Part shown: in pieces, positions 4,257 through 32,832 of the stretch
How the letters are laid out: every line of letters begins with the position of its first letter
How positions within the stretch are numbered: the first letter of the stretch is position 1
Source: Candidatus Sericytochromatia bacterium
GTDB taxonomy: Bacteria > Cyanobacteriota > Sericytochromatia > UBA7694
Assembly: GCA_018780035.1 (NCBI GenBank)
Contig: JADMKE010000014.1
Span: 137,271 to 173,657 of the forward strand
Length of the DNA stretch: 36,387 bases
Reading direction: 5' to 3'
The notes under the pieces: generated by a model
What the model saw: only the letters and a program-made list of their open reading frames with translations
What the model was told of the DNA's origin: nothing
Databases searched by the model: none
Made by a program: the position numbers and the translations under genes

Positions 4257-4327
4257 CAAGCATTGTAAAGATATGTTATGAAAGAGGTATGAATGATAAC
4301 GCTGGGTTGTGATGGAGGATCAGAGGT

Positions 4328-7300
4328 ATGGGTATTCAGTTGAATGGTTCGTACTCCAATGTCGGCAAAGACACGTTACAAACACTGCACAAGGTGGCAC
4401 AAAGTGGCGCAAAAATTGAAGCAGCAGAAGTCGATGAAGTCGAAAAAGCGGCCCGTGCCGATGGGGATTTCAGTGATGGCGAAAAAGCCTTGATTGCAAA
4501 ACTCAGAGAAGGAACCCGCGATAAAAAAGAGATTCAGGATTTTCAATTGGCGGCCTTTGACCCCACGGCCCAAGAGCTGGAATTTGGCAGTTTTAACCTG
4601 GAGATCAATGCCAATCAGGGCCAAAGCAAACCCGTCTATCTTGAACGCCTCGGAGAAGCCATTCGGAGCAATGATTCCGACAGTGATGACACCATTCGCA
4701 AGCTGCTGTCGGATCAAAAGCGTTTTGAACTGGCAGCCAAATTGGCACCGGGTCGGCTGCTCGAAGCTGTGGATATCCTCAAAAGTGGCAATTATTCAGA
4801 CGAAGACCGGGCTAGCGTGGTGAAAATTTTTGCAGCTGTGCCCCCTGCCCAACAGGCAGAGATTCTGAAAAAACTCAACGCAGATGGGGATGATAATACC
4901 CTGCGCGATCTGAGTGAAAACAGCACAGCTTTGGCAGCTGTGGCCCAAGGGGATCCTGCGGTCTTGGACAAAGTCATTGAGACCTTAAAAAGTGGCGTTT
5001 ATTCAAGCGAAGATGCAGCAGCAGTGGCCCGCGTGGTCGCGGCCCAATCAGCTCCTCAGCAGCAGAGTTTTGTCAAAGCAGAAATTCAGCGCAATGACAG
5101 TGACAGTGACGATACCCTGGCCGCGTTGAGTGAAAAGACCCGTGTGCTTGAAAATTTGGATACTCCCACCAAATTGCAAAGCTTACATGTGCTCTATGAT
5201 GGCAATGTCTCTGCAGAAGACAAAGTGGGCATGCGCCACATTTTGGAAGAAATCGGCTTTTTGACGATCTCTGACGACAAAGCCAAAGAAGTCGCCAAAG
5301 CCTTGGAAGGCCTCAGCGATGCACAAAAAACCAAATTGGCCGGTCAATTGGATCAACTCAGTCCAATTCAAAAAGCAGATCTGCTCAAGGTCTTGAATCA
5401 GCTCAATCCTGAACAAATCCAAAACAGCTTAAAGGCCCTGACCGCTCCCAGCAACAAAGACGAATTGGGGAGTTTGGTCAAGCTCTTAAGTGCGAGCCAC
5501 AATAAACCCGAAGAACTTGCTCGCTTTTCTGCTGGTTTTGCGGCCTTGACTGAGCCTGAACAGCAAAGTGCCGCGAAACTCATTCACAGTTTAATGCAAG
5601 CCCCTCCCCCCGCCAGCTTGAGAACAGATATTGCCACAGAATTGAGCAAATTGGGGGCCAGCAGTCCCCGCGTAGGCCAAGTCTTAAATAGTTTGGGGCT
5701 TTACTTACCAGCCACTGAGCCCAAAGCCCCCGGCACAGAAGATGCCTCTTCGCGCTTAAAAACCGTCTATATGGGGCAATACAGAACCGATGACCCCAAT
5801 GCCGACTATACCCGAGACATGTTAAAAGTCGCCCAAACTGAGAATTTTAAAGTGGCAATCCAAGGCTCTTTAACCCATTTTCCCACCCCAATGCCTGCCG
5901 CCACTGTCACGGCCAAAGAAACAGATCTGGCCGCCAAAGGGGAGTTTTCCCGCGCCAATCTGGATGCCACAATCAAAACCCTGGAAGACATGGGCGTGCT
6001 CAGTGGCGCCATGCCTGCCGCAGACAAAGACAAAGAAGCCAAGACCTATTTGGCCAAGGTGGCCCTCTTCAAAGATACCCTGATTGCCGATCTGCAAAGC
6101 AAAGAAGGCATGAGCAAAGCTGATGCCGAGGCCTTGGTCAACAATCCCGATCGGGTCGATATCCGCCTGACGCCTCACGCTGGGTATATCTGGGCCGAAG
6201 ACAATAAATGGGTCAAGGTAGATGGCACCGTAACGACCACCCCGGCGCTGCGGCGTATTCCGGGGATGGCCCCCCCCGCTTTGGACAAAGCTCAGGCCTT
6301 TACCGATGCCAATCTGGGCCAAGCCCCAGGCACCCCCGGTTCGGAGGGCCACCACACAGCCGCCTTGCCCAGCAATGATCCCTACAATTTATTGCCAGAC
6401 AACCCTGCCACCTCATGGCGGGGGGCGGTGACAATACGCGACCAGGAGATCAATGCCAATGAATTGGGACAATCTGTTAATGGCCGCCCTGCGGATGTAA
6501 CGCGCACCTACAACGAAGGTGGCAATATGCTTACCGGGACCAAGCCCAATGGCGAAAGTTATGCGGTGGTGGGCAGAGATGGCTTGTTATTGAGCGCTTT
6601 TCATTTGGAGGACACCTCAGACCCGGTCTTTGATGCTGCCAAGGTCGATGCCAGAATCAAAGCCATGGGCCTCGATCAGCCTTTTGCCTCCTTGCCCAAG
6701 GCCACCCAAGCCGAAATCGACGTCACAATCAAGCGCTTAAAAGCAGCCGGAGAAACCTTTCCCGATCTGGCTGCAGAAAGAAAACGGGCCACTGAATTTT
6801 TGGCCAAAATTGATCTAACAAAAGATCTCTTTGCCCAAGATATTGGGGTCGATCGCAAGAATTTGACATTTGTCGCCCAACCAGACTTTCATATAGATAT
6901 GCACATGCGCCCCCTGGGACCGGGGCAAATGATGATCAACGATTTTGACGCCAATCTGAAGCTCTTAACCGAGGCAAAAAAGAAAGCCACCCCTGGCTCC
7001 TGGGAAGACAAAGAACTGGATAGCATGATAGATCATGCAAAAAAAATGAAAGCGGTGCTGGGCCCGGTGATGGATCAGATTGCCCAAGAGTTAAAAGACA
7101 GTGGCCTCGAAGTCATTCGGGCCCCAGGCGTGATGGAAGCCCAAATGGCCCAAGCGCCGGTCGAAAAAGATTCGGATGTGGGTACCTTTTTGGGCTTGGC
7201 AGCAGACAAAACCTATGACCAAGCCACGCTCAAAGCAGAATTGATGGCCAAAGGAATCACCGATCCCGTTTTGGCAGAGGTTCTGACCCAAACCTTTAAG

Positions 7301-7543
7301 CGTCACGTCAATTTTATGAATGCCGTTCCTGGCACCAGCAATGGCAGCAACAAACAGTTTTATATGACCAACGCCACCAGTTTGCCTTCCCTGACAGCGG
7401 CTTATGAGGACTATCTCAAACAGACACACGGTATAGAAACCGTGTATTGGCTCGGCGGAGATGGTGGTGGCCCCAGCAGCAGAAGCGCTTCGGAACAATC
7501 ATTGGATGCCAGTGGCGGACTGGACTGCCGGGAGAACCATTGA
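4328..7543 (+). CDS. Large (1071 aa) multidomain protein. It has an N-terminal acidic helical-repeat region and a C-terminal domain (about 370 aa) of the guanidino-group-modifying-enzyme fold (arginine deiminase / DDAH / peptidylarginine deiminase / amidinotransferase-like). It is a putative arginine- or guanidino-modifying effector.
   Basis: ATG 4328 has GGAGG 9 nt upstream. The N-terminal 600 aa contain recurring motifs: 'R(S/N)NDSDSDDT' appears twice and 'LKSG.YS.ED...V' appears three times. No signal peptide is present. The C-terminal domain carries the ordered hallmark motifs of the fold: 'TYNEGGNMLTG' (EGG[D/N], nt about 6514-6525), 'DFHIDMHM' (H-x-D, nt 6890-6898) and the C-terminal 'SGGLDCRENH' (GGxxC catalytic Cys, nt 7524-7526). 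The stop TGA overlaps the next ATG (TGATG). Confidence 0.8.
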   Translation: MGIQLNGSYSNVGKDTLQTLHKVAQSGAKIEAAEVDEVEKAARADGDFSDGEKALIAKLREGTRDKKEIQDFQLAAFDPTAQELEFGSFNLEINANQGQSKPVYLERLGEAIRSNDSDSDDTIRKLLSDQKRFELAAKLAPGRLLEAVDILKSGNYSDEDRASVVKIFAAVPPAQQAEILKKLNADGDDNTLRDLSENSTALAAVAQGDPAVLDKVIETLKSGVYSSEDAAAVARVVAAQSAPQQQSFVKAEIQRNDSDSDDTLAALSEKTRVLENLDTPTKLQSLHVLYDGNVSAEDKVGMRHILEEIGFLTISDDKAKEVAKALEGLSDAQKTKLAGQLDQLSPIQKADLLKVLNQLNPEQIQNSLKALTAPSNKDELGSLVKLLSASHNKPEELARFSAGFAALTEPEQQSAAKLIHSLMQAPPPASLRTDIATELSKLGASSPRVGQVLNSLGLYLPATEPKAPGTEDASSRLKTVYMGQYRTDDPNADYTRDMLKVAQTENFKVAIQGSLTHFPTPMPAATVTAKETDLAAKGEFSRANLDATIKTLEDMGVLSGAMPAADKDKEAKTYLAKVALFKDTLIADLQSKEGMSKADAEALVNNPDRVDIRLTPHAGYIWAEDNKWVKVDGTVTTTPALRRIPGMAPPALDKAQAFTDANLGQAPGTPGSEGHHTAALPSNDPYNLLPDNPATSWRGAVTIRDQEINANELGQSVNGRPADVTRTYNEGGNMLTGTKPNGESYAVVGRDGLLLSAFHLEDTSDPVFDAAKVDARIKAMGLDQPFASLPKATQAEIDVTIKRLKAAGETFPDLAAERKRATEFLAKIDLTKDLFAQDIGVDRKNLTFVAQPDFHIDMHMRPLGPGQMMINDFDANLKLLTEAKKKATPGSWEDKELDSMIDHAKKMKAVLGPVMDQIAQELKDSGLEVIRAPGVMEAQMAQAPVEKDSDVGTFLGLAADKTYDQATLKAELMAKGITDPVLAEVLTQTFKRHVNFMNAVPGTSNGSNKQFYMTNATSLPSLTAAYEDYLKQTHGIETVYWLGGDGGGPSSRSASEQSLDASGGLDCRENH

Positions 7544-8127
7544 TGAGAAAAATAGTGATTTTGTCGCTTTTATTGGCAGGCTGCTTTGCCAAAACACCCA
7601 CAGAGGAGAAAGCCATGATCCAGAATCCCCCCGATTTAAAGCAATACCAAAACATGCTTCACAGCATGCGACAGGCCAATCAACATGGGCATTTGACTGT
7701 CCCACAAATCAAACAGGCCATCCATCTGGCCCAAGGATTTAAAGGCCAAGAACAAACGTTGGCACTGGATATCCTCAAGCAAACAGTCAGTACCCACGGG
7801 ACCAAAGAGGCAAAATCTTTTTACAGCCTCAATCCAGAATTGAATCTGGTGGATGTCTTTTCAGCTGTTCATATCGACTCAATTCCCGAATCCCTCTTGC
7901 AATTGCTCAATCCCGACATGCCCGGATTGAGTTTAGACAGATTCAGACAATTGCCTGCAAAAGACCAAACTCAGCTCTTGGAATTTGCCCGCACAGCACA
8001 AAACTATTACCTTGAGAAAGCCGAGTCGATGCGCTCTGCCGTCAATCCTATCTCTGCAAAGGCAGAGACCATTGGGATGTTTTTGCTGCAGGCCCAAACT
8101 GAAGTTCAAATTTCTGAAAACAATTAA
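7543..8127 (+). CDS. Small alpha-helical lipoprotein (194 aa) translationally coupled to the 1071-aa gene. It is a possible immunity, chaperone or partner protein.
   Basis: ATG 7543 overlaps the upstream TGA stop, and GGAGA lies 7 nt upstream. The lipoprotein signal is 'MRKIVILSLLLAGC' with a lipobox Cys. The track's longer ORF (7447) has an implausible Trp/Arg-rich N-terminus lying inside the upstream gene. Confidence 0.7.
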   Translation: MRKIVILSLLLAGCFAKTPTEEKAMIQNPPDLKQYQNMLHSMRQANQHGHLTVPQIKQAIHLAQGFKGQEQTLALDILKQTVSTHGTKEAKSFYSLNPELNLVDVFSAVHIDSIPESLLQLLNPDMPGLSLDRFRQLPAKDQTQLLEFARTAQNYYLEKAESMRSAVNPISAKAETIGMFLLQAQTEVQISENN

Positions 8128-8128
8128 G

Positions 8129-10060
8129 CTACCAGGTTCTGAGGAAGCGCTTGTTGAGTTCCAGTTTGCTGAACTTGAGCAGAATCGGGCGGCCATGGGG
8201 ACAGGTATAGGGATTGCGGGTTTTGGACCAATTTTGGACTATCTTTTGCATCTGTTCGAGAGTTAAAGGGTCGCCAGCCCGAATCGCACTGTGACAGGCA
8301 ATGGTCTTGCAGAGCCGGTTAAACGACTCCAGATAGACTTTGGCCACGCCACTTTCGCGCAACTCTAACAAAACCTCTTTAAAGGTTGCTTCGGTCTCAG
8401 CAAAACGCAGACAGTGGGGAATGGCACGAATCGCAATACTGCCAGGCCCCTCCTCTTCCCATTCAAAGCCTGCACGTTCAAAGGCTTTGCGATTTTCTTC
8501 GAGCAGGCCGCGCTCAATTTCATCGATCTCAATCACGACCGAGAGCAGCAGCGGCTGGCTGAGAATTTTGGCCTGTTCAAGCAATTCTTCGTAGAGATAG
8601 CGCTCTTCGGCCACGTGTTGATCGAGCAGGGCCAGCCCATTGCCATAATGGGCCACAATATACGTATAATCACAGGCCTGGCCCAGGGCGCTGACGGGCT
8701 CCAGCGGCGCACCAGCTTCAACCGGCGCTGGCGGAGGGGTGATTTTGAGATCGGGCAATTCCAGCACTTGCGGGGGACGTGTTGGCAACTCCGGAGCCCA
8801 ACTGGGGCCTGCAGGCTGGACGGGCACTGGTGCAGGAGCAAGGGGAGAGGCGTAAACTGGCGCGGCAGGTTCCTGAACGGAAGGCTGAACAACAGGAAGC
8901 GGCATGGCAAAAGGAGGAATTTCATCGTCATCATCAAAAGCATTGCCAGCAGAGGCTTTGACAGGATTCATAGCACTGGCTGCGGTGGACACAGTTGGCA
9001 CAGTTAACGGGGTGGGCTCAGCCGCTCCAGAATCCACCACCGGCGGCCCCAAACTGGCGCTGCGCTCAAAATTGTAACGTGAAAGGGAGTTTTGAATGCC
9101 CTCGCGGGTCAATTGAAAAATCTGGCTGAAATGTTTGAACTTGACCTCTTTTTTATTGGGGTGCACGTTCACATCGACATTGCCAGCCGGCAGTTCCAAT
9201 TGCAGAATCGCCACGGGGAAATTCTTTTTGGGTACCAGATCGGCGTAGAGATCATCGACAAGCTTGGTAATGCCCGGCACCTTGACCCAGCGCCGATTGA
9301 CAAACAAAAATTGGTAATTGCGGTCGCGGCGCACACAATCGGGATAACTCAGAACCCCTTGGACCAAACCGGCTGGGGTTTCGTGGCTGACGGTATAGAG
9401 CGAATCAGCCAGGTCTTTGCCCAAAATTTGCCTCACCACCGAACTCAGGCTCTGCTGGCCGCTGGTCTGAATCACTGTTTTGCCTTTTTTGACAAATTTA
9501 AAGCCAATCTCGGGCAAGCCCAGGGCAAAAGCCTGCATCAATTGCTGGATATACCCCAATTCGGTGGTCTCAGAGCTGAGAAATTTGAGCCGGGCAGGGG
9601 TATTGTAAAAGAGATCGCGAATCGTCAGACTCGTTCCCACTGGCCCGCCAGCGGAGCTGTTTTCGATGATTTCACCGCCCTGGATCACCAGGCGTTTGGC
9701 AATGTCTTGATCGGCGGTACGGGTTAAGATTTCAACCCGCGCCACCGAGGCAATACTGGGCAAAGCCTCACCGCGAAAGCCCATGGTATTGATGCTCCAA
9801 ATATCTTCAAAGCTCTGCAATTTGCTCGTGGCAAAACGCTGAAAGGCCAATCCGACACTTTCTGCAGGAATGCCAAAGCCATTGTCGACGACCCGCAAAA
9901 AGCGTCCGCCCTGATCCACTTCGACCTGAATAAAGGTCGCACCGGCATCAAGGGCATTTTCAACCAATTCTTTGATCACCGATGCGGGCCGCTCAACCAC
10001 TTCACCCGCGGCAATTTGGTTGGCAACCTGGGCATCGAGCAGCTGAATCGGCTTCATCAT
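8129..10060 (-). CDS. mutL: DNA mismatch repair protein MutL.
   Basis: The N-terminal GHKL ATPase motifs read 'QVANQIAAGEVVERPASVIKELVENALDAG' and 'VVDNGFGI'. A Pro/Ala-rich linker is followed by the C-terminal dimerisation/endonuclease region 'ACHSAIRAGDPL'. The ATG overlaps the htrA stop (ATGA). Confidence 0.95.
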   Translation of the reverse strand: MMKPIQLLDAQVANQIAAGEVVERPASVIKELVENALDAGATFIQVEVDQGGRFLRVVDNGFGIPAESVGLAFQRFATSKLQSFEDIWSINTMGFRGEALPSIASVARVEILTRTADQDIAKRLVIQGGEIIENSSAGGPVGTSLTIRDLFYNTPARLKFLSSETTELGYIQQLMQAFALGLPEIGFKFVKKGKTVIQTSGQQSLSSVVRQILGKDLADSLYTVSHETPAGLVQGVLSYPDCVRRDRNYQFLFVNRRWVKVPGITKLVDDLYADLVPKKNFPVAILQLELPAGNVDVNVHPNKKEVKFKHFSQIFQLTREGIQNSLSRYNFERSASLGPPVVDSGAAEPTPLTVPTVSTAASAMNPVKASAGNAFDDDDEIPPFAMPLPVVQPSVQEPAAPVYASPLAPAPVPVQPAGPSWAPELPTRPPQVLELPDLKITPPPAPVEAGAPLEPVSALGQACDYTYIVAHYGNGLALLDQHVAEERYLYEELLEQAKILSQPLLLSVVIEIDEIERGLLEENRKAFERAGFEWEEEGPGSIAIRAIPHCLRFAETEATFKEVLLELRESGVAKVYLESFNRLCKTIACHSAIRAGDPLTLEQMQKIVQNWSKTRNPYTCPHGRPILLKFSKLELNKRFLRTW

Positions 10061-11268
10061 TGCTCCCGCGTGGCAGTCAGGCGCAGATTTAAATTGATCG
10101 GCTTGCCTTTGCCACCTTTGAGAATCGTGACCTGAATGGTGTCTCCCACCCGTTTGCGGGTTTCGAGATAGGTGAGCAAATCGTTTTCGACTTTGACAGG
10201 CTGGCCATCGACCGCGAGAATAATGTCCCCACCGAGGTAAAGCTCATAATTGCCAATATACACGCGCTGAGTTCCGCCTTTGATCCCGCCTTGGGCCGCG
10301 GCCCCTGTGGGGGAGGTCTGCATCACCAAGAGGCCTTCAGAGACCTGCAATTTCATCAATTGGGCCAAACGCGGGCTGAGCGACATCACGCTGATGCCCA
10401 TCCAGGGGTATTGGGCTTTGCCGTATTTGAGCAGGTCGGGGATAAAACGTTTGACTGTGTTGATCGGAATCGCGAAGCCCAAACCGACAGAGCCACCCGA
10501 GGGGCTGTAGATCAGCGTATTGACGCCAATCACGCGCCCAGCTGAGTCAAAGAGCGGGCCACCCGAATTGCCACTGTTGATCGCCGCATCGGTTTGGATC
10601 AAATCCGACATCACCCGGTTTTCTTCGACCTGAATTTTGCGCCCGAGTGAACTGACCACCCCAGAAGTCATGGTTTGGCCCAAACCAAAGGGATTGCCAA
10701 TCGCGATCGAGGTCTGCCCGACCTGCAATTTGGAAGAATCGCCCAAGCTGACGGGATTGAGCAAATTGCCAGGGGCCTTGACCTTGAGAATCGCCAAATC
10801 GCTGCGCTGGTCATAGCCCACCAATTCAGCGGGGTAAGAGTGTTCCATATTGCCAAAGGCCACAAAGAAGCGCTGAGCGCCGTTGACCACATGAAAATTG
10901 GTCACGATATGGCCCTCTTTGTCGATCACAAAACCCGAACCTGCGCCCTCACTGGGCACCATTTCCATAAAATAATTGTATTGAAAGGAGCGGGTGGTCA
11001 CATTGACCACCGAACTGCTGACCCGTTTATACAGATCGATCGTCTGTTGCTCTTGCGAGACACCTGCCGCCGCCAGGGCACTGGGATCGACCAAAGCGGT
11101 CATGTTCGGCGAGGCTACAGGTGTTTTGGGCACAGCTTGGTTAAATTGCAAATACCCCAAGACCAACGTGCCGCCAGCCAGACCAGCCAAGGCAAAGCCC
11201 AGTAGTTGCTTGATCAGGGGGGAATTTTTGTCTGTGTGTTTGTTTGCATCGTGGTTTAAATCGTTCAT
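10057..11268 (-). CDS. HtrA/DegP-family trypsin-like serine endoprotease with an N-terminal membrane anchor and one C-terminal PDZ domain.
   Basis: Motifs are 'GSGFVIDKEGHIVTNFHVV' (His), 'DLAILKV' (Asp) and 'GNSGGPL' (Ser). The PDZ motif is 'GDIILAVDGQPV'. The transmembrane anchor is 'LLGFALAGLAGGTLVLGYL'. The start is placed at ATG 11268 (MNDLNHD...) with GAGGAA upstream. It overlaps the recO stop as ATGA. The track start at 11298 lies inside recO. Confidence 0.9.
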   Translation of the reverse strand: MNDLNHDANKHTDKNSPLIKQLLGFALAGLAGGTLVLGYLQFNQAVPKTPVASPNMTALVDPSALAAAGVSQEQQTIDLYKRVSSSVVNVTTRSFQYNYFMEMVPSEGAGSGFVIDKEGHIVTNFHVVNGAQRFFVAFGNMEHSYPAELVGYDQRSDLAILKVKAPGNLLNPVSLGDSSKLQVGQTSIAIGNPFGLGQTMTSGVVSSLGRKIQVEENRVMSDLIQTDAAINSGNSGGPLFDSAGRVIGVNTLIYSPSGGSVGLGFAIPINTVKRFIPDLLKYGKAQYPWMGISVMSLSPRLAQLMKLQVSEGLLVMQTSPTGAAAQGGIKGGTQRVYIGNYELYLGGDIILAVDGQPVKVENDLLTYLETRKRVGDTIQVTILKGGKGKPINLNLRLTATREQ

Positions 11269-12065
11269 GGTTTCCTCGTTTCGTTGGGCATGGCCCAACC
11301 CAAATTATCGTCTTGGAGATAGGTCAGGGCTTTTAAGGGTTTTTCAGCCAATTGCTCAAAATAGCTCTGCAAGCAAGCTTGCAATTGCCGCATAGCCTGG
11401 GGTTTCAGCTCGGGCAAGCTCTGCGGGGGCCCCTCAGAGGCCTGTAACCCCCGCAGAACTTCGACCTGTTCAAAGCTCAGATAGCGGCAGGTCTCTTTGC
11501 GTTTGCACGCTTCACAGCGCAAGCCGCCGTGTAAGGTATCAAAAAAGTGGTAATCGCGGGGGCGAAAGTCAATTTCACATTGGGCACAAAAATCCCAGTC
11601 CTGCTGATAGCCCAATTGCTCCAGATAATGCAATTCAAACCAGAGCAAAAGTGGCAGGGCTTCAGTCCCAGCGGAAAGCGCCTCTAAACCGTGTAAAAAC
11701 AGCGCAAAGAGATATTCATTGGGATCTTCTTCTTGGGAGAAAGAGGCGATCAACTCACCCATGGCAAGCGCATGGGTCAAGGCATGGTAATCGCGGTTCA
11801 GACCCGAAAAAGAGCGCAGGGCATCACATTGGGTGATTTTATGCAGGTTGCGTCCCCGCTCCAAGACCAGATGGTTGCAGCGCAACAGGTCCAAACGACC
11901 CGCAAGCTTGCTGCGGGGCCGACGCACACCCTTGGCAATGGAGCGCAAAACACCAAATTTGCGGCTGTAGAGCACCACAATTCGGTCGTGCTCGTTATAG
12001 TCGTAGTGCTTGAGGACAAAGGCCTCTACTTCAAACGGATGCCGGTTGGGCGGCAAGTTCGACAT
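11265..12065 (-). CDS. recO: DNA repair protein RecO.
   Basis: The N-terminal OB-fold reads 'EAFVLKHYDYNEHDRIVVLYSRKFG'. The C-terminal zinc-finger reads 'CAQCEIDFRPRDYHFFDTLHGGLRCEAC'. ATG 12065 is used; the track uses TTG 12074. The stop overlaps the htrA start. Confidence 0.9.
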   Translation of the reverse strand: MSNLPPNRHPFEVEAFVLKHYDYNEHDRIVVLYSRKFGVLRSIAKGVRRPRSKLAGRLDLLRCNHLVLERGRNLHKITQCDALRSFSGLNRDYHALTHALAMGELIASFSQEEDPNEYLFALFLHGLEALSAGTEALPLLLWFELHYLEQLGYQQDWDFCAQCEIDFRPRDYHFFDTLHGGLRCEACKRKETCRYLSFEQVEVLRGLQASEGPPQSLPELKPQAMRQLQACLQSYFEQLAEKPLKALTYLQDDNLGWAMPNETRKP

Positions 12066-12318
12066 GGTCGACAATACCTACAATCACACAGCGAATGGGG
12101 GCGTTTTCATAATGCAGGATCTGACGGGAGGAAGTGCCTTCTTCGAGCAACAACACCCGATCTCCCACACCGGCCTGAACCTGATCGATGGCGATCACCT
12201 GCTCTCCGGTGTCTTCTCCATAGGGATCGATCGGCTGGACCATGAGCAACTTGCGTCCTTGCAGGGCCTCATGTTTGATCGTGGCAACCACGCTACCAAT
12301 GACTCGTGCCAGTCTCAT
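12031..12318 (-). CDS. EutN/CcmL/PduN-family bacterial-microcompartment vertex (pentamer) protein. It is an orphan with no shell hexamer genes nearby.
   Basis: The 95-aa protein MRLARVIGSVVATIKHEALQGRKLLMVQPI...VQAGVGDRVLLLEEGTSSRQ...PIRCVIVGIVDHVEL aligns by eye along its length with E. coli EutN / cyanobacterial CcmL. A perfect AAGGAG SD lies 7 nt upstream of ATG 12318. Its 3' end overlaps recO by 35 nt. Confidence 0.8.
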   Translation of the reverse strand: MRLARVIGSVVATIKHEALQGRKLLMVQPIDPYGEDTGEQVIAIDQVQAGVGDRVLLLEEGTSSRQILHYENAPIRCVIVGIVDHVELAAQPASV

Positions 12319-16159: not shown

Positions 16160-16411
16160 ATGGCAGCTGATCCCTCCATTCTCTCCTCTTCCGTTATGGC
16201 CGCCGCCGGTGCAGTAGGCCTCGCTGGTATCGGTGCTGCTATCGGTATCGGTATCTCCTCTAGCAAAGCGCTCGAAGGTATGGCCCGCCAGCCAGACGCA
16301 GAGCCCTTGCTCGCCCGTAACATGATTCTTGCCATGGCATTTATGGAAGCTATCGCTATTTACGGGTTGGTCGTTGCACTGATTCTGCTGTTTGCTAACC
16401 CCTTTAAATAA
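16160..16411 (+). CDS. atpE: F-type ATP synthase subunit c (proteolipid), monocistronic here.
   Basis: The 83-aa protein has two transmembrane helices. The Gly-rich motif is '[13 protein letters not shown]'. The ion-binding Glu is in '[24 protein letters not shown]'. The C-terminus is cyanobacterial/chloroplast-like. No other atp genes flank it. Confidence 0.85.
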
Positions 16412-18236: not shown

Positions 18237-18713
18237 ATGGCTTCACCCAAAACCAACGCAGCAAGGATTCTCGACCAACTCGGAATCGCCTACGATTTGC
18301 TCAGTTACGCCGTCGATGAAAGCGATTTAAGCGCCCCCGCTGTGGCCCAGAAAATTGGGATCGAAGCGGCCCAGACCTTTAAAACCCTGGTGGGCAAAGG
18401 CGACAAAACCGGGGTGATCATGGCCTGCCTGCCGGGCGATGCCGAACTCAACCTCAAGGCCCTGGCTGCTGCCAGCGGCAATAAACGGGTCGAACTGGTG
18501 GCCCTCAAAGAGATTCAGCCCTTGACCGGGTATATCCGGGGCGGGGTCTCACCGCTCGGGGCGAAAAAGGCCTATCCGGTTTTGATTGATGAGCTGGCGC
18601 AGGTATTTGATCGCATTGCCGTCAGTGCCGGACAGCGCGGCCTGCAGCTCTTTTTGCAGCCGGAAGATCTTCGCAGGGCCTGCCACGGCGTCTGGGCGGC
18701 CCTGAGCCAATAG
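18237..18713 (+). CDS. ybaK: Cys-tRNA(Pro)/Cys-tRNA(Cys) deacylase YbaK.
   Basis: The 158-aa protein contains '[16 protein letters not shown]...[22 protein letters not shown]...[11 protein letters not shown]', a strong match to YbaK/EbsC. Confidence 0.85.
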
Positions 18714-19721
18714 GGCATTGCTGAGTCTGAGCAAGCTGCGCAGGCCCCGGCTGGCCCAATCGGGGCGGGTTGTGAGCAGCGTCTCGCGGCGCAGGGCCCC
18801 GAGCCAGTCGGCAGGCGTGAGCGCGTGGTGCATGCCATCGAGGGAAAAAATTTGAATTTCACTCACCCCGGCCTGCCGGGCCGCTTCGCAGTCTGCGGCC
18901 AATTCAGCGGGATCGTGGTACCCCGACTCACTCAATTTGCCCACGGTGCCCACCACGCCCAAAGCCGCCTGCAAGGGCTGTTGAAAGCATTTTCGCGCGT
19001 CTTCAAAATAGCCTTTGACAAAGTGCGGTGAGAGCGAAAAACCAAGCAAATCGCGAAAGCTGCTGCGGTAGGTCATCAGTGAAAGGGCATCCCAATTGAC
19101 CCCTGTGACGGGCAATTGCAAAAGTTCCTGAAAACAGGTATTGCCCGCTTGGGCATCTTCGACCACCAGGGGATAGGTCACGGCCCAGGCCTGGGTACCA
19201 CGCTGGTGCAATTCGTGAATCAGGCGATTAAAGACCTCCCGCGCGGCAGCCAATTTGAGGGCCCGCTGGCTTTGGCGCAAATGGGCCCAGAGCGCAGGCA
19301 AGTGGCGCTGCAATAAGAGCTGACGCAGATGTAAACTGTCAGCCAAAGAGGGTTCTAGATCTGCAATCAAAACTGGCAGGGGCAATTTTTCGGCATCGAT
19401 CCAGTCCATCAAACGGTGGGCCGTCTGAGCAAAGATCTCAGCATTGCCAGCATGGGGCCAATAGCCCTGGGCATCAGGCAAGAGCAGCCAGGCCCGCACG
19501 GGCACCTCCAGCAGCGCGGCTTGGAGCAAGAGAGCCCGCAATTCAGGGCTGGCGATTTGGCTTGAAGGAATCGCCAAATTGAGGGCCAGTGCGTGTTTGC
19601 GCAAAAGAGGCAGATCACCGGCCACCCAATGATAGGGCATGAATTCGGCCCAGAGGGCATACGCAGGGTTCATCTGGTCTTGTGCCTTTAATTTGCCTTT
19701 AAACAGGGTGATCTTTTGCAT
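18549..19721 (-). CDS. Hypothetical protein (390 aa). Its 3' end overlaps ybaK convergently by 165 nt.
   Basis: It is a long ORF with an ATG start and no recognisable motifs. Codon usage matches the neighbours. The overlap with ybaK suggests either a genuine convergent overlap or an extended 3' end. Confidence 0.5.
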
Positions 19722-27077: not shown

Positions 27078-30000
27078 TCAAGGAGAAATTCTGCGAACAC
27101 GGTGGTTAAGCCGGTCGGCCACATAGACCTGACCTGTACTATCTACGCTCACACCGGTCGGATTGTTCAGCTGAGCCAAACCTGCAATGCTGTTGTCTCC
27201 GGCCAGAGCAGCGGCCCCCGTTCCAGCAAGGGTATAAATAAAATTGGCAGTCATGGCTTGGCCATAATAATTCCCTGATGTGATCGGGATAAACCGAATC
27301 TTGTGATTGCCAGTATCGGCAATAAACACCCCTGTGGCATTGGCAAAGACCCCGCGTGGGCTGCTCAGACGGGCTGAGGTCGCGCTACCGCCATCCCCTG
27401 TTGCACCGGCATTGCCATCACCAGCGATGACATACAGGGTATCTGCGGCCATGACTTGGCCAAAATAGTTACCCGCGGTGTCGGGCCTGAAGAAGATGCG
27501 GTGGCTGCCTGCATCGGCAATGTACACATGCCCGCCGTTGGTGGCGTTGGCCACCCGATGGATACCACTCGGACTGTTCAAAGCGCTGCCACCAAAGCCA
27601 CCGCCTGCAACAAAATAGATATTGCTGCCAGCGACCGTTCTGCCAAAGCGGGTGGCGGGCCCGGTCAGGAGATTGGAGAAATAGGCCACGTTATTGCCCG
27701 TATCGGCAATCAAGGTGCCATTGCCCTGATCTGCAACCCCTTCGGGACTGGCCATATTGGCCGCGAAGCGGGCAGTACCATCGGTCGCAGCACCATTGGT
27801 GCCACTGCCATTGACAGTATAAATACTGCCGGCAGTCATGGCGATATTGTAAAAAGTGGCAGTGGTATTGCTGAGGGTGCGTACCCGCTGATTGGCGGTA
27901 TCTGCAAAGGTCAGCAAAATATTGCCAATCAGGGCAATCCCGTGGGGATCGTTGACCTGAGCGGAGGTGCCCGCACCATTATCACCGGCAAATGTGCCGG
28001 TGCCATTGCCGGCCAGGGTATAGATATTGCCTGCGGTCATGCCAGCCACCCCAAAAAAGTCACCATTGCTGGCAGGCACAAAGCGAATGCGGTGATTGCT
28101 GCTATCGGCAATGGCCACATGATTGGAGGCATTGATAGAGACGCCCCAGGGGGCATTTAATTGTGCGCTTGCAGCAGCGCCATTGTCACCACTGAAGCCC
28201 TGGGTCGAACCGGCAAAGGTGGTGATTCTGGGCATGACTGTAAAATTGCTTCCGGCACTGGTTTGGGTCCCCACCTGAACAGTGGTGGCATAAGGCGCGG
28301 CATTGGATGTCAGAGAAGGTACTGTAACAGTGAGAGCCGTGGCTGTCGCCCCTGTGACTGTGGCATTTGTGCCGCCAAAACTGACGGTATTGCTGCCCAG
28401 TGTGGTGTGAAAGCCTGAACCATTGATCGTGATACTGGCTCCCGCCACATCACTGCTGGTACCGGCAGAAGTGAAACCGGTAATCGCAGGTGTGACGGCA
28501 TAATTATTCGTGCCGGCATTGGTTTGCCCTGCCACCGTGACCGTGACATTCTGGCTGCCAAAGATTCCGGCAGGCACCGTCACATTGAGGCTGGTCACTG
28601 AAGCGGTATTGACCGTGGCTGTGGTTGTACCGAAACGCACGGTATTGTTGCCAGGGGTCGTGTCGAAGCCGGTGCCGGTGATGGTCAGGGCACTGCCAAT
28701 CGTGCCATTGCTGGCACTCAGGTTGGTAATTGTGGGCCCTGCGGCACTCACTGTGTAGTTATTGGTGCCTGCATTGGTCTGTGCGCCGACCTGAACCGTC
28801 ACATTCTGAACGCCGACATTGTTGGGCACCGTGACCGTCAATTGGGTTGTGGTGGCAGCCGTGACTGTGGCAGCAGTGCCACCAAAGCTCACGGTATTGC
28901 TGCCGAGTGTGGTATGAAAACCACTGCCGTTAATAGTCATGCTACTGCCAACATTGCCTGCGATGGGGGTGAGATTGGTAATCGCTGGCGTAACCGCATA
29001 ATTATTCGTGCCGACATTGGTTTGCCCTGCCACCGTGACCGTGACATTCTGGCTGCCAAAGATTCCGGCAGGCACCGTCACGTTAAGGCTGGTGGCTGAA
29101 GCGGTATTGACTGTGGCCGTGGTCGTGCCAAAACGCACGGTGTTGTTGCCAGGGGTGGCATCAAAGCCCGTGCCGGTGATTGTCAGGGTACTGCCAATCG
29201 CGCCATTGCTGGCACTCAGGTTGGTAATCGTGGGGGTCACATTAAAATTATCTGCGGCGGTATTGGCGCTGGTCTGGTTGCCGACCTGCACAGAAATATC
29301 CTGGGCCCCGGTGATGCCCACTGGCACCGTGACCGTGAGTTGGGTATTGCTGGCTGCTGTAACTGTGGCAATGGTGGTGCCAAAGCGCACGGTATTGCCT
29401 CCGGTTGTGGCGTGAAAATTTGTGCCGTTGAGGGTAACGCTGCTGCCAATCGGGCCGGCACTCGCACCTAAACTGGTAATACTGGGGGTCGCTGGGGTGG
29501 CTGTTACTGTCACAGCATGGGTTCCACCTTCTGTGCTCGTCACCGGATTGGTGGCCACAGCATAGGTATACGTGGTTCCGGGGGTACCGGCACTGGAAGC
29601 CAAAAGCCGCAAGCCAGAACCAGGAGTGGATTTGACAAAAGCAGTCACGCCATTGCCTGCTGCCGTAACCACGGGTGTGGCACTGTCGGTCAATTGCAAA
29701 CGGGCTTGGTCTGCCCCCACTAAGCCCGTCACCGTGGCATTGACAGTGCTGCCGTTGAGGCGGTAATTGGCTGGAGTCAAAGCCCCTGGATTCTGGCTCA
29801 AAAGATCATTGGCCAATTGGGTCAGGTTGATCAGGGTCGGATGGGTGGTATAGGTATAGTTGGGATAGGTGCCTGCCACACCGGTGATCTGATTGATCAG
29901 GGTATTTAAATCCGCCAGCACGATTGCTTTGGCACGGGTGAGATTGGTGGCCATCAGGCTTTTCATCACCTTGGCCGCAGGAGTGCTCAAAAAACTGACC

Positions 30001-30476
30001 TCCACATTGGCATTGTTGATTCCGGGATGGCTGATCACACTGGCCAGTTCGGCCTGGGGAATGAGCGCCACACCGTCATTGACACTGAGCTCCAGCAATA
30101 ACAATTGATCGGGGATCAGATTGTTAAAGGTCAGGCTCAGATTGCCGCCAACAGGGTAATTGACTTGGCCCTGGGCATCAGAGCCATTGGGCCGGGTAAC
30201 AAGATTAAAGCTGTCGGTGACTAAGGCTTTGACTTTGGTGGCAGAGGCAAAGTCCAGGGCCTGGGTTTTAAACGCTGGCAAAGCAGGCAAATCCAGGTGT
30301 AAGGTCAGTTGATTCCCGTGCCATTCCATCCGAGCAGGCCTGAGTAAAACAGGTGAAACTACGGGAGATTGCTGTAAAGGAGAAGCAGGATTTGGCATAG
30401 ATGTCAGCTCAGGTGAACTTTGGCAGGCCGCCAACAGAGAGAGAAGCACAAAGAGCGAAAGAGATGAATAGCGCAT
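27078..30476 (-). CDS. Giant surface lipoprotein (1132 aa) with a lipobox signal, at least 7 IPT/TIG domains and a C-terminal six-bladed NHL beta-propeller.
   Basis: The signal is 'MRYSSLSLFVLLSLLAAC'. TIG units recur as 'TITNLSASNG.IGS.LTITGTGFD.TPGNNTVRFG...LNVTVPAGIFGSQNVTV'. NHL blades read 'AIADSSNHRIRFV', 'FADTANQRVRTL', 'VYIADAGSHRIFF', 'VFIADTGNHKIRFI' and 'VYVADRLNHRVRRI'. The ATG shares one nucleotide with the upstream gene's stop (TAATG). Confidence 0.9.
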   Translation of the reverse strand: MRYSSLSLFVLLSLLAACQSSPELTSMPNPASPLQQSPVVSPVLLRPARMEWHGNQLTLHLDLPALPAFKTQALDFASATKVKALVTDSFNLVTRPNGSDAQGQVNYPVGGNLSLTFNNLIPDQLLLLELSVNDGVALIPQAELASVISHPGINNANVEVSFLSTPAAKVMKSLMATNLTRAKAIVLADLNTLINQITGVAGTYPNYTYTTHPTLINLTQLANDLLSQNPGALTPANYRLNGSTVNATVTGLVGADQARLQLTDSATPVVTAAGNGVTAFVKSTPGSGLRLLASSAGTPGTTYTYAVATNPVTSTEGGTHAVTVTATPATPSITSLGASAGPIGSSVTLNGTNFHATTGGNTVRFGTTIATVTAASNTQLTVTVPVGITGAQDISVQVGNQTSANTAADNFNVTPTITNLSASNGAIGSTLTITGTGFDATPGNNTVRFGTTTATVNTASATSLNVTVPAGIFGSQNVTVTVAGQTNVGTNNYAVTPAITNLTPIAGNVGSSMTINGSGFHTTLGSNTVSFGGTAATVTAATTTQLTVTVPNNVGVQNVTVQVGAQTNAGTNNYTVSAAGPTITNLSASNGTIGSALTITGTGFDTTPGNNTVRFGTTTATVNTASVTSLNVTVPAGIFGSQNVTVTVAGQTNAGTNNYAVTPAITGFTSAGTSSDVAGASITINGSGFHTTLGSNTVSFGGTNATVTGATATALTVTVPSLTSNAAPYATTVQVGTQTSAGSNFTVMPRITTFAGSTQGFSGDNGAAASAQLNAPWGVSINASNHVAIADSSNHRIRFVPASNGDFFGVAGMTAGNIYTLAGNGTGTFAGDNGAGTSAQVNDPHGIALIGNILLTFADTANQRVRTLSNTTATFYNIAMTAGSIYTVNGSGTNGAATDGTARFAANMASPEGVADQGNGTLIADTGNNVAYFSNLLTGPATRFGRTVAGSNIYFVAGGGFGGSALNSPSGIHRVANATNGGHVYIADAGSHRIFFRPDTAGNYFGQVMAADTLYVIAGDGNAGATGDGGSATSARLSSPRGVFANATGVFIADTGNHKIRFIPITSGNYYGQAMTANFIYTLAGTGAAALAGDNSIAGLAQLNNPTGVSVDSTGQVYVADRLNHRVRRISP
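28244..29240. repeat. Two near-identical tandem copies of a 498-bp unit (166 aa, two TIG domains) inside the 1132-aa gene.
   Basis: The same sequence appears at about 28499-28616 and about 28997-29114, with only about 6 mismatches over the roughly 118 nt compared by eye. Reverse-strand pseudo-ORFs 28510-28758 and 29008-29415 translate almost identically. Confidence 0.8.
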
Positions 30477-32809
30477 TAGTTAAAGCCTCCATTGGCGTTG
30501 AGGGTGATTGAAGGCAAAATCGCCGCCACAGCGTCACTGCTGAGCACATCCACGATCACGGTGATGTTGATATCCCCCGGCAAATTGAGAGCGGTGGGCA
30601 CAGGCACGATCAACTGGTTGCCATTTACAGCAGCAGCCGGGACTTCAATCGTCCCAAAGCGCACGCGGTTATTGCCCGCTAAAAGGGTGTCAAAACCCGT
30701 TCCTGTCAGGGTCAGGGAGCTTCCTCTGACGAGACGAGCCTTGCCAGAGACAATGCCATGAGGTGTGGCCAGAGCCGTAATCTGGGGTTTCACTTTAAAG
30801 GACAAAGCATTGCTGTTGGCACCATTGACCTTGACAGAGACATTCTGGGCCCCAAAGATGCCGGCGGGTACCGTCACGGTGAGACTGTTGGCTGTCGCGG
30901 CGGTCACTGTGGCCGAGACATTGCCAAAATTCACCAGATTTTCAGCTGCAACTGCACTGAAATTGGAACCAGTCAACGTGATCGTGCTGCCAATCGGAGC
31001 TATAGTAGAGGCAAGGGTCGAAAGGGTGGGTTGATTGAGGGCCGAAGCCCCGCCGCCTCCGCTCCCCCCGCCGCTGCTTCCCCCACCGGAAGACTGACGC
31101 CAAGTAGACGTCGTGGCTTTGCCTGTCACAGTATCATTGCCGCGCTTGACATCCACACGGAATTCATAGCGGCTATCAGGACTGAGGCCACTTGCAAGAT
31201 ATTTGAGTTTTTCCCCGGCTTGGCCATTGATTTTGGCAAGCAGGCGATTGCTTTCAAAAATTTCATAAGTGGCTGCGGCAGCAATCCCCGTAAATTCAAG
31301 TTGAATTTGGGTATATTCATTGTTTGGGAATGGATAAGCCTTGATCTGCAGACCAGTAGCCGAAGCGCTGGGGCTCGGAGAAACCGAAGGCGTGATCTGG
31401 GGAGAGGGAGTCGGAGAAGCGGTCGGCAATGCTGTCGGTCTGGCACTAGGAGATGCTGAGGGCTGAAGGCTGGGCGCGGGTTGGGGAGTGGGAACGGTTT
31501 CCGGTAACTGGGCCTGCAAAAGTGTCAATTCACAAGGGCCCAGCGGGGGAAATGGATTGGAAAGGATGACGGTTCCTTGTGAATTGTTCAGGTTCACAAT
31601 CTCTTTTCCGGTGTTATTGAGCTGTTTATTCTGAATATTTTCACGGACCGAAGAGATGGCAATGGCCGTTTCTGCGTTTGATATTTTTGTAATTTTTGAA
31701 TCAAAAATATTTATATTTTTATTTAAATCCAACAAGATAGACTGACTATCTCCCAAAATAATTTGATTAAGCGTCTGATTGATTTTGGTAATTTCATTGC
31801 TGGTGAGACTCACCATATCCATCACACTTCCGAGAGAGGTGTCCTGGTCATTACATTGTGGCAGCGAGTTGCTCAGATTGATGATTGAGCCCAAATTTTC
31901 AGCGACTGGCTTGAGAGGGCTGGGCTTTGGCGAAGAAAATAGCACAGAGGTGGTATTTGGGGAGGGGACTTGCTGAATCTGAAAACCCTCAGAGGGGGCA
32001 GGTGCTAAAGCCGCAATTAAGTTGGCTTGTTTGAGCTGTCGCTGAATTTCCTGGCCCATGAGTCCATTGAGATAGCGAATCTGAATCAAAGATTCCAAGC
32101 GCGCCACCAGATTGGGCATTGAGCTTAGAAAGGTATTTTGAATATTCTCTAAGCTTTCTTTTTCCAATCCCACGCGACCATCTTGCTGGGAGCCGCGTAT
32201 AATATCTGCCAAGACTGTTGAGCGGGGCGAAACTTCCACAGTCAATGAGACAGGCTTATTTGGCACATCTACGAGGGCACGGGCAATTAATTGACTTTGT
32301 TGATTGAGGGCCAAGACCTCATATCTGAACCCCCCTGGTAGGGCATTGATCTGAAAATGGCCCGTGGCATCTGTTTGCGTGCTGGCCAATTCTTGACCAT
32401 CGGGTAAATAGATTTTGACAGTTTGATAAGCCAGTCCCTCCAAAACAGCTTTATTGCCTTGAGGCATCAATAAACGCCCTTTCAGAGCCAAGGGCGATGC
32501 TTGCTTGAGCTGAGCGAGAACGGCTTGTTTCAGCTGGGCTTGTGCTCGCGCTTGCAATGCTGGTTCGACAGTTACCACTGAGGGGAGTTCTATTTCTTCA
32601 GCTGTCTGGAAATAGCTGTTTAAGGCCTGTCTTAAGCGTTCCCTTTCACTGTTTTTTTCACTCTGGCTTAAAGGAGGGAGAACCGCAGGTGTGCTTAAAA
32701 GCAAATTGCTGCCCAAAGGCCCAGTCTCTTGGCAGCCCAGTAAAAGGCTGAAACAGAGACAGGTAAAGGTCAGTGATTTTTTAAATCGAAAATGAGATGG
32801 ACGTATCAT
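30476..32809 (-). CDS. Surface lipoprotein (about 777 aa). Domains in order: CarboxypepD_reg-like beta-sandwich, low-complexity N/I/K-rich region, Pro/Ser/Thr/Ala linker, Fn3-like domain, Gly/Ser linker and two C-terminal IPT/TIG domains.
   Basis: ATG 32809 (MIRPSHFRFKKSLTFTCLCFSLLLGC, lipobox) has GAGGAG 10 nt upstream; the track start is TTG 32827. CarboxypepD_reg-like motif is 'KIYLPDGQELASTQTDATGHFQINALPGGFRYEVLA'. The Fn3-like segment is 'YEIFESNRLLAKINGQAGEKLKYLASGLSPDSRYEFRVDV'. The TIG motif is 'TIAPIGSTITLTGSNFSAVAAENLVNFGNVSATVTAATANSLTVTVPAGIFGAQNVSV'. It is a paralogue of the N-terminal region of the 1157-aa protein. Confidence 0.85.
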   Translation of the reverse strand: MIRPSHFRFKKSLTFTCLCFSLLLGCQETGPLGSNLLLSTPAVLPPLSQSEKNSERERLRQALNSYFQTAEEIELPSVVTVEPALQARAQAQLKQAVLAQLKQASPLALKGRLLMPQGNKAVLEGLAYQTVKIYLPDGQELASTQTDATGHFQINALPGGFRYEVLALNQQSQLIARALVDVPNKPVSLTVEVSPRSTVLADIIRGSQQDGRVGLEKESLENIQNTFLSSMPNLVARLESLIQIRYLNGLMGQEIQRQLKQANLIAALAPAPSEGFQIQQVPSPNTTSVLFSSPKPSPLKPVAENLGSIINLSNSLPQCNDQDTSLGSVMDMVSLTSNEITKINQTLNQIILGDSQSILLDLNKNINIFDSKITKISNAETAIAISSVRENIQNKQLNNTGKEIVNLNNSQGTVILSNPFPPLGPCELTLLQAQLPETVPTPQPAPSLQPSASPSARPTALPTASPTPSPQITPSVSPSPSASATGLQIKAYPFPNNEYTQIQLEFTGIAAAATYEIFESNRLLAKINGQAGEKLKYLASGLSPDSRYEFRVDVKRGNDTVTGKATTSTWRQSSGGGSSGGGSGGGGASALNQPTLSTLASTIAPIGSTITLTGSNFSAVAAENLVNFGNVSATVTAATANSLTVTVPAGIFGAQNVSVKVNGANSNALSFKVKPQITALATPHGIVSGKARLVRGSSLTLTGTGFDTLLAGNNRVRFGTIEVPAAAVNGNQLIVPVPTALNLPGDINITVIVDVLSSDAVAAILPSITLNANGGFN

Positions 32810-32832
32810 ATAGCTGGGGCTCCTCAAAATAT

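Follow-up and report, generated by a model that had tools for sequence, protein, structure and literature searches.

A stretch of 36,387 nucleotides from Candidatus Sericytochromatia bacterium (contig JADMKE010000014.1 of assembly GCA_018780035.1; hereafter, the window) contains a eutN-like gene, which encodes a 95-residue protein of the bacterial microcompartment (BMC) vertex family EutN/CcmL and heads an operon with recO, htrA, and mutL. An earlier note on this DNA regarded the gene as an orphan with either a role outside microcompartments or a past in a lost carboxysome. Our analysis indicates that the gene is probably a satellite vertex paralogue of a microcompartment encoded elsewhere in the genome, rather than an orphan that has taken on a new function. 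The shell genes of Sericytochromatia are most likely dispersed, and the metabolosome is most likely SPU-related.

The eutN product is a genuine BMC vertex protein (BMC-P), as the earlier note had proposed. Its residues 1–84 align with the full length of the Pfam profile PF03319 (EutN_CcmL; positions 1–83 of 83, E = 6.9e-29) at a score of 100.6 bits against a cutoff of 25, and its sequence matches in the PDB are EutN (1.4e-17), the HO shell pentamer BMC-P (1.5e-14), and CcmL (about 1e-10). When the AlphaFold2 model of the protein (pLDDT 90, pTM 0.80) was compared with the PDB by Foldseek, all 47 significant matches were BMC-P pentamers (EutN, GrpN, CcmL, HO, CsoS4, and RMM) with TM-scores of about 0.8, and other proteins with an oligonucleotide/oligosaccharide-binding (OB)-like fold appeared only at E > 0.01. 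A different OB-like fold family, which would have spoken against the assignment, is thus excluded. The residues that are invariant in all or nearly all sequences of a 55-sequence alignment including BMC-Ps of the 99-aa class (V6, G8, T13, K15, D45, G50, G52, G61, R65, Q66, P74, and D84) are all kept.

E. coli EutN and cyanobacterial CcmL (PDB 2HD3/2Z9H, 2QW7, 4JW0, and 4N8X) have the same fold as the window protein (TM-score of about 0.8), 35–45% identity to it, and the same invariant core. The differences are that (i) the window protein scores below both NCBIfam equivalog cutoffs, with 72.6 bits against 118 for EutN (NF011992) and 75 bits against 125 for CcmL (NF053795), although the latter is its best NCBIfam model; (ii) it falls in another paralogue group than CcmL (described below); and (iii) it has no eut or ccm neighbours, these genes being absent from the window in Pfam scans of its open reading frames (ORFs).

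Clustering of 207 BMC-P sequences from the examined loci and PDB references yielded three classes. Group 3 (n = 71) contains the window protein, all of its Sericytochromatia orthologues, and the last BMC-P of SPU- and HO-type triplets; Group 2 is the partner gene directly upstream of Group 3 (about 270–330 bp) in nearly all non-Sericytochromatia loci; and Group 4 is the 99-aa class, which includes the PDB structures of CcmL, GrpN, and the HO pentamer. Within Group 3, the copies from Sericytochromatia make up a single monophyletic clade. In the published "BMC-P triplet", gray and orange paralogues always co-occur and the third comes from another clade; the reason for these extra paralogues is open and is said to hint at "an additional functional role" (PMC8217296; PMC11585597). 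Our grouping is by clustering with these loci and references, and the class is given here as triplet-type, gray or orange. Placed phylogenetically among the BMC-Ps, a check that the earlier note had suggested, the window protein belongs to this published triplet-type class and lies outside the CcmL group.

This placement bears on the proposal in the earlier note that the gene is a ccmL surviving from a lost carboxysome, for which the position of the lineage as sister to Cyanobacteria and the rank of CcmL as best NCBIfam model could be cited. However, the CcmL score is far below its cutoff and is equalled or exceeded by those of three Chloroflexi SPU paralogues; the CcmL structures group apart from the window protein; its nearest relatives are BMC-Ps from metabolosomes of Chloroflexota, Holophagae, Myxococcota, and Hydrogenedentota; and the high conservation of the protein speaks against decay. 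With a score below the cutoff and a place in the SPU/HO triplet class instead of the CcmL group, a carboxysome relic is effectively refuted and is hardly credible for this gene.

Outside Sericytochromatia, identity to the window protein does not exceed 62%, and it is 55–62% to the last BMC-P of Chloroflexota, Holophagae, and Myxococcota loci. These homologues occur in Chloroflexota, Holophagae, Myxococcota/Kofleriaceae, Hydrogenedentota, Gemmatimonadota, and other taxa, and in none of the 76 scored loci of other phyla does the homologue adjoin recO. Most of the 76 are either BMC loci with BMC-H, BMC-Tdp, AldDh, DeoC, and RpiB or two-BMC-P pairs; four, short or at an edge, hold a lone BMC-P only. 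The SPU-type context comprises DeoC, RpiB, BMC-Tdp, BMC-H, AldDh, and three BMC-P genes, and the Kofleriaceae context (HO-type) is a two-BMC-P satellite. The closest non-Sericytochromatia homologue (62% identity) lies in a Chloroflexi SPU locus (L015, 6771–10273; L-numbers denote individual loci of relatives), in which the Group 3 BMC-P is separated by ~3 kb from its Group 2 partner. The intervening sequence contains a CHAT-domain gene plus one further gene on the opposite strand, and partial fragmentation therefore occurs outside Sericytochromatia too.

The triplet BMC-Ps of SPU, HO, and FRAG microcompartments (Sutter et al. 2021, PMC8217296; Dwyer et al. 2024, PMC11585597) have the same Pfam domain, the same fold, and the same Group 3 class as the window protein, and share with it the signature residues Q48, E60, and R76 and an acidic charge. 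By contrast with the SPU and HO triplet members, the window gene lies away from its partner paralogue and from BMC-H, BMC-T, AldDh, DeoC, and RpiB, and is joined to recO by a 35-nt overlap at the head of recO-htrA-mutL.

Site-by-site comparison between 27 Sericytochromatia sequences and 64 Group 3 sequences embedded in BMC loci revealed that every column conserved at a level of at least 0.8 in the embedded set, including Q48, E60, and R76, keeps the same residue in Sericytochromatia; no conserved Group 3 column is relaxed or switched in the 27 sequences. The isoelectric points (4.9–6.3) and the net negative charge (about −4) are like those of the BMC-embedded Group 3 proteins, and an acidic charge of this kind is unlike that of a nucleic-acid-binding OB protein. 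With the conserved shell sites intact and the protein acidic, the non-microcompartment or moonlighting role suggested in the earlier note found no positive support beyond gene order.

As that note had also observed, the window lacks genes for the rest of a shell and for its contents: Pfam scans of every sizeable ORF in the 36 kb detected no PF00936 domain (BMC-H/T), no second BMC-P, and no typical BMC enzyme, and the further 10 kb past the left edge of the window likewise contains no shell genes and no such enzyme. Shell loci elsewhere are documented in the literature, by catalogue labels for two related metagenome-assembled genomes (MAGs), where a "main" locus denotes at least one BMC-H plus one BMC-P (PMC8217296). 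According to the supplement entries for these genomes, Ca. Blackallbacteria CG17 (GCA_002781665.1) is typed FRAG2; its main locus includes the 99-aa BMC-P COW36_19470, and a BMC-Tdp, COW36_04485, is listed as a satellite. HGW-Melainabacteria-1 has two main loci, CVV27_03545 (SPU2) and CVV27_13785 (type unassigned) (PMC8217296 supplement). Both genomes carry eutN-recO-htrA-mutL, which in CG17 is headed by COW36_14680, the orthologue of the window eutN. The shell genes of FRAG BMCs lie at up to six genomic sites, remote from the enzymes, and include a BMC-P triplet (PMC8217296). CG17, a close relative, is catalogued as such a fragmented type (Sutter et al. 2021), and the local picture in the window, a lone BMC-P remote from enzymes, is consistent with this type. 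The term orphan, used in the earlier note, accordingly holds within the window but not for the two genomes that have the same operon and are catalogued with shell loci elsewhere (PMC8217296). In CG17 and HGW-Melainabacteria-1, the catalogue thus records the situation that the earlier note had named as contradicting it, namely a shell locus elsewhere into which the gene fits as a satellite.

Several points weigh against a satellite vertex gene: (i) the evidence for BMC-H in Sericytochromatia consists of the catalogue labels for two related MAGs, not of sequence; (ii) in the supplement trees, COW36_19470 nests among Chloroflexi SPU3 sequences and the CVV27_03545 BMC-T lies next to a Spirochaete on a short branch (PMC8217296 supplement), and it is possible that these MAG contigs represent contamination or recent transfer; (iii) gray and orange paralogues are said always to co-occur, yet no Sericytochromatia locus has the Group 2 partner within ±10 kb; (iv) a tight overlap of a shell gene with recO throughout the class is unusual for a satellite locus; and (v) the role of the triplet paralogues themselves is unexplained in the field (PMC8217296, PMC11585597). 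BMC-H was likewise not found within ±10 kb in any Sericytochromatia locus. A search with a 99-aa Chloroflexi paralogue as the query gave 6836 matches, of which the best 120 were all Chloroflexi-like at identities of at least 81%, with no Blackallbacteria main-locus BMC-P among them.

The operon and its signals are arranged as follows.

12318–12031, minus strand: eutN-like gene (BMC-P, EutN/CcmL family), 95 aa, ATG start, the first cistron, of the triplet-specific Group 3 class.
12065–11265, minus strand: recO, recombination mediator, 266 aa (RecO_N 7.2e-20 and RecO_C 5.5e-22).
11268–10057, minus strand: htrA/Deg-type serine protease gene, 403 aa (Trypsin_2 4.1e-34 and PDZ_2 2.3e-9).
10060–8129, minus strand: mutL, mismatch-repair protein, 643 or 642 aa (MutL_C 1.1e-33, DNA_mis_repair 4.2e-32, and HATPase_c_3).
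12065–12031, minus strand: eutN/recO overlap of 35 nt, with the recO ATG (12065–12063) inside eutN.
12331–12326, minus strand: AAGGAG Shine-Dalgarno sequence of eutN, 7 nt 5' of the ATG.
12466–12442, minus strand: intrinsic terminator of the upstream C11-peptidase gene (10-bp stem with 7 GC pairs, 5-nt loop, and T-run).
12441–12319, minus strand: leader and putative promoter region of the operon, including a −10-like TACAAT and the AAGGAG.

The recO ATG falls in the H85–V86 codons of the C-terminal I-V-D-H-V motif of the BMC-P. The recO stop and the htrA start share ATGA (11268–11265). At the next junction, the htrA stop and mutL start form ATGATG (10060–10055), in which mutL can begin either at the ATG of the ATGA overlap (10060) or at the following ATG (10057, 1-nt overlap), where gene callers place it. 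The Shine-Dalgarno sequence, the overlap of the eutN 3' end with recO, and the ATGA of recO/htrA reported in the earlier note were all recovered, and its second ATGA overlap, between htrA and mutL, stands only if mutL starts at 10060. The HtrA protein consists of a hydrophobic N-terminal segment, a trypsin-like domain, and a single PDZ domain. Because a strong terminator ends the C11-peptidase gene, eutN is the first cistron of its own transcription unit. The candidate −10-like TACAAT (12365–12360) was picked by eye and is unscored by the consensus scan, which found no full sigma-70 match on the minus strand.

We propose that the paralogue was split from its usual partner and from the BMC-H and BMC-T genes and came to head the housekeeping genes recO, htrA, and mutL. 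By analogy with characterized pentamers, five subunits would assemble into a homopentamer, which would be incorporated into a shell of BMC-H/T proteins encoded elsewhere and cap its vertices; alternatively, the protein may have the accessory shell role of the extra triplet paralogues. The eutN gene would be transcribed from its own promoter downstream of the terminator and translated from its strong Shine-Dalgarno sequence, with recO, htrA, and mutL co-transcribed and probably translationally coupled. With the recO start embedded in eutN, the arrangement would be locked in and hard to break. Such a lock-in could explain why the gene order persists throughout the class without a functional link, because the recO initiation site lies inside eutN.

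The exact EutN protein is present on more than 20 public contigs, including one of 250 kb from "Candidatus Blackallbacteria bacterium mt_P12" (GCA_051715345.1); other 100%-identical copies occur in "Candidatus Sericytochromatia" MAGs, a taxon that NCBI places in the Cyanobacteriota/Melainabacteria group; the Cyanobacteria-related lineage assumed in the earlier note is borne out by these identical proteins. The eutN-recO-htrA-mutL cluster is found in all near-identical contigs and in CG17 Blackallbacteria (EutN 92–93% identical), and also, with different flanks, in contigs with EutN identities of 78, 76, 72, 71, 79, and 67% and RecO identities of 43–48%. A search with RecO gave 21 clusters at identities of at least 42%, followed by a sharp drop to 33%. 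Eleven of the 21 agree with EutN matches in the length of their longest contig and thus apparently lie on the same contigs, and all 3 of a further 3 that were inspected directly have eutN. The RecO of an Armatimonadota outgroup has no eutN, htrA, or mutL nearby. The eutN-recO linkage, whose conservation the earlier note had left to be tested, is thus kept in every sampled Sericytochromatia lineage.

Junctions were compared in nine lineages. In six of them, eutN and recO overlap by 35 nt, and in two (L013 and L104) by 29 nt; in L028, the overlap is 175 nt because the eutN frame is apparently disrupted. A GGAG-type Shine-Dalgarno sequence lies 5' of eutN in all nine. The recO/htrA and htrA/mutL junctions drift across lineages, from ATGA to TAATG and to spacers of up to about 15 nt. 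Identities of EutN/RecO/HtrA/MutL to the window proteins are 92/70/80/74% in CG17, 78/46/60/54% in L011, 71/45/60/53% in L013, and 67/43/63/52% in L014. EutN is therefore the most conserved protein of the operon (67–92%, against 43–70% for RecO, 60–80% for HtrA, and 52–74% for MutL), a pattern that points to strong purifying selection and shows EutN to be neither a relic in decay nor an ORF with only a leader function.

The L028 locus (1882–2307; Cyanobacteria bacterium UBA7694, DLGM01000486.1) lies on a 4.7-kb contig, where the eutN frame appears to be extended or shifted: its ORF continues to 2307, and the high-scoring segment pair ends at 2067. The likelier cause is a fault in the assembly, not a pseudogene.

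The strong Shine-Dalgarno sequence on eutN and the recO start 35 nt inside it would also suit an ORF that merely delivers ribosomes to the recO start and whose protein is functionless. The protein is, however, far better conserved than RecO (67–92% versus 43–70%), and its family-invariant residues are intact across the clade, whereas a pure leader ORF would not be so constrained. On these two grounds we reject a pure leader ORF, which is a very improbable explanation.

A further alternative is exaptation, that is, a BMC-P with a microcompartment-independent role, such as a ring of OB folds that acts on DNA together with RecO and MutL, or a protein that is a partner or substrate of HtrA. Throughout the class, eutN and recO stay overlapping and co-transcribed despite variable flanks, the neighbourhood in the deep lineages also includes NUDIX and recG genes, and EutN is the best conserved member of the operon. 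In addition, BMC-P is an OB-fold derivative (PMC5683377), the literature suggests a possible further function for the extra paralogues, and the protein has parted from an otherwise obligatory partner. On the other side, the residues conserved in shell-locus orthologues are all kept, the net charge of about −4 is unsuited to nucleic-acid binding, and the catalogue records further shell loci in genomes that have this operon. Gene order is weak evidence alone, and the embedded recO start supplies a non-functional reason for it. The operon is also functionally mixed: it combines a recombination mediator, an envelope protease, and a mismatch-repair protein, to which the deeper lineages add a membrane protein and a lipoprotein. 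Because its members have no common function, co-transcription need not mean that the BMC-P acts in DNA repair. We consider exaptation unlikely, and the more specific version, in which a triplet BMC-P paralogue works with, or is needed for, a RecO/MutL/HtrA module outside the shell, quite unlikely.

The BMC-P family, the triplet, and fragmented BMC loci are already known, and the genome of a close relative is in the catalogue. By contrast, the conserved overlapping eutN-recO-htrA-mutL arrangement of Sericytochromatia was not found described in the literature searched; a satellite BMC-P linked to recO, htrA, and mutL is likewise not described in the text or supplements of Sutter 2021 as far as they were searched. 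Literature searches for Sericytochromatia with microcompartment returned nothing, and with carboxysome nothing apparently relevant by title or abstract. The conserved linkage is thus new but modest, and the genomic setting is mildly unusual.

If the gene is a satellite of a shell encoded elsewhere, it is an ordinary shell gene and an example of translational overlap freezing an unrelated gene into a housekeeping operon throughout a class, and the shell genes that Sericytochromatia carry are those of an SPU-related metabolosome and are not left over from a carboxysome. The field has yet to explain why three pentamer paralogues are retained in SPU, HO, and FRAG organelles (PMC8217296, PMC11585597). 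Here, one paralogue would be driven by a different promoter from the other shell genes and probably expressed constitutively along with housekeeping genes, which offers a natural system for asking whether a triplet paralogue has a role distinct from vertex capping. Should a role outside the shell be true instead, the recO linkage would offer the first hint from genomic data about the "additional functional role" proposed for BMC-P paralogues.

In deeper lineages (L011, 8231–17041; L014, 8091–16329; L103, 8376–12317; and L105, 3446–13120), the core operon is extended. Upstream are a NUDIX hydrolase gene (not in L014) and a gene for a membrane-anchored unknown of 240–260 aa; downstream of mutL are a gene for a 255–263-aa unknown, a lipoprotein in L011 and L014, and then recG (L011, L014, and L105). 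The L103 contig ends within mutL. The flanking unknowns are missing from the window and match no Pfam family. Considered as BMC cargo or shell partners, they were rejected, as one resembles a membrane protein and the other a lipoprotein. The L103 contig (GCA_002839735.1, PGYP01000268.1) is from "Candidatus Melainabacteria bacterium HGW-Melainabacteria-1" and has a Sericytochromatia-type cluster, with RecO 44% and EutN 76% identical to the window proteins, the same depth as in undoubted Sericytochromatia; the name of this genome may not reflect its class.

Among contigs with identical EutN, MutL (8129–10060, minus strand) varies in length (629, 632, 633, 642, and 656 aa), and its identity falls to 92–96% in those contigs where RecO and HtrA are 99–100% identical, which suggests that the central part of MutL is a hypervariable Pro/Ala-rich linker. 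A tandem-repeat scan of 4300–10100 gave nothing, and neither did tRNA and Rfam scans of the window.

Directly downstream of mutL, a plus-strand gene (4328–7543) encodes an acidic protein of 1071 aa that contains internal sequence repeats and matches no Pfam family, and a 170-aa ORF (about 7615–8127, plus strand) lies between this gene and mutL. Both ORFs of 4328–8127 are present in L001, L003, and L004, which have identical EutN, and absent in L002, L006, and L007, in which mutL abuts an NmrA-like gene. The segment looks like a strain-variable insertion.

On the other side of the operon, a solitary gene (16160–16411, plus strand) encodes an 83-aa protein like the ATP-synthase c-subunit (PF00137 on the equivalent gene); no other atp genes are in the window, and the c-subunit-like gene occupies the same position in CG17. 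A YbaK/tRNA_edit-domain gene (18237–18713, plus strand) and a 390-aa ORF with no Pfam match (18549–19721, minus strand) are convergent and overlap by 165 nt. Both are called in all assemblies, and their 1-kb bin has the highest GC content of the window (61%). At 27078–36306 on the minus strand, three large tandem genes encode IPT/TIG and NHL repeat proteins of 1132, 783, and 1157 aa, the last of which begins with a lipoprotein-type signal (…LSAC). The GC content drops to 41–46% over 32–35 kb, and 27078–36306 may therefore be an acquired surface-protein cluster.

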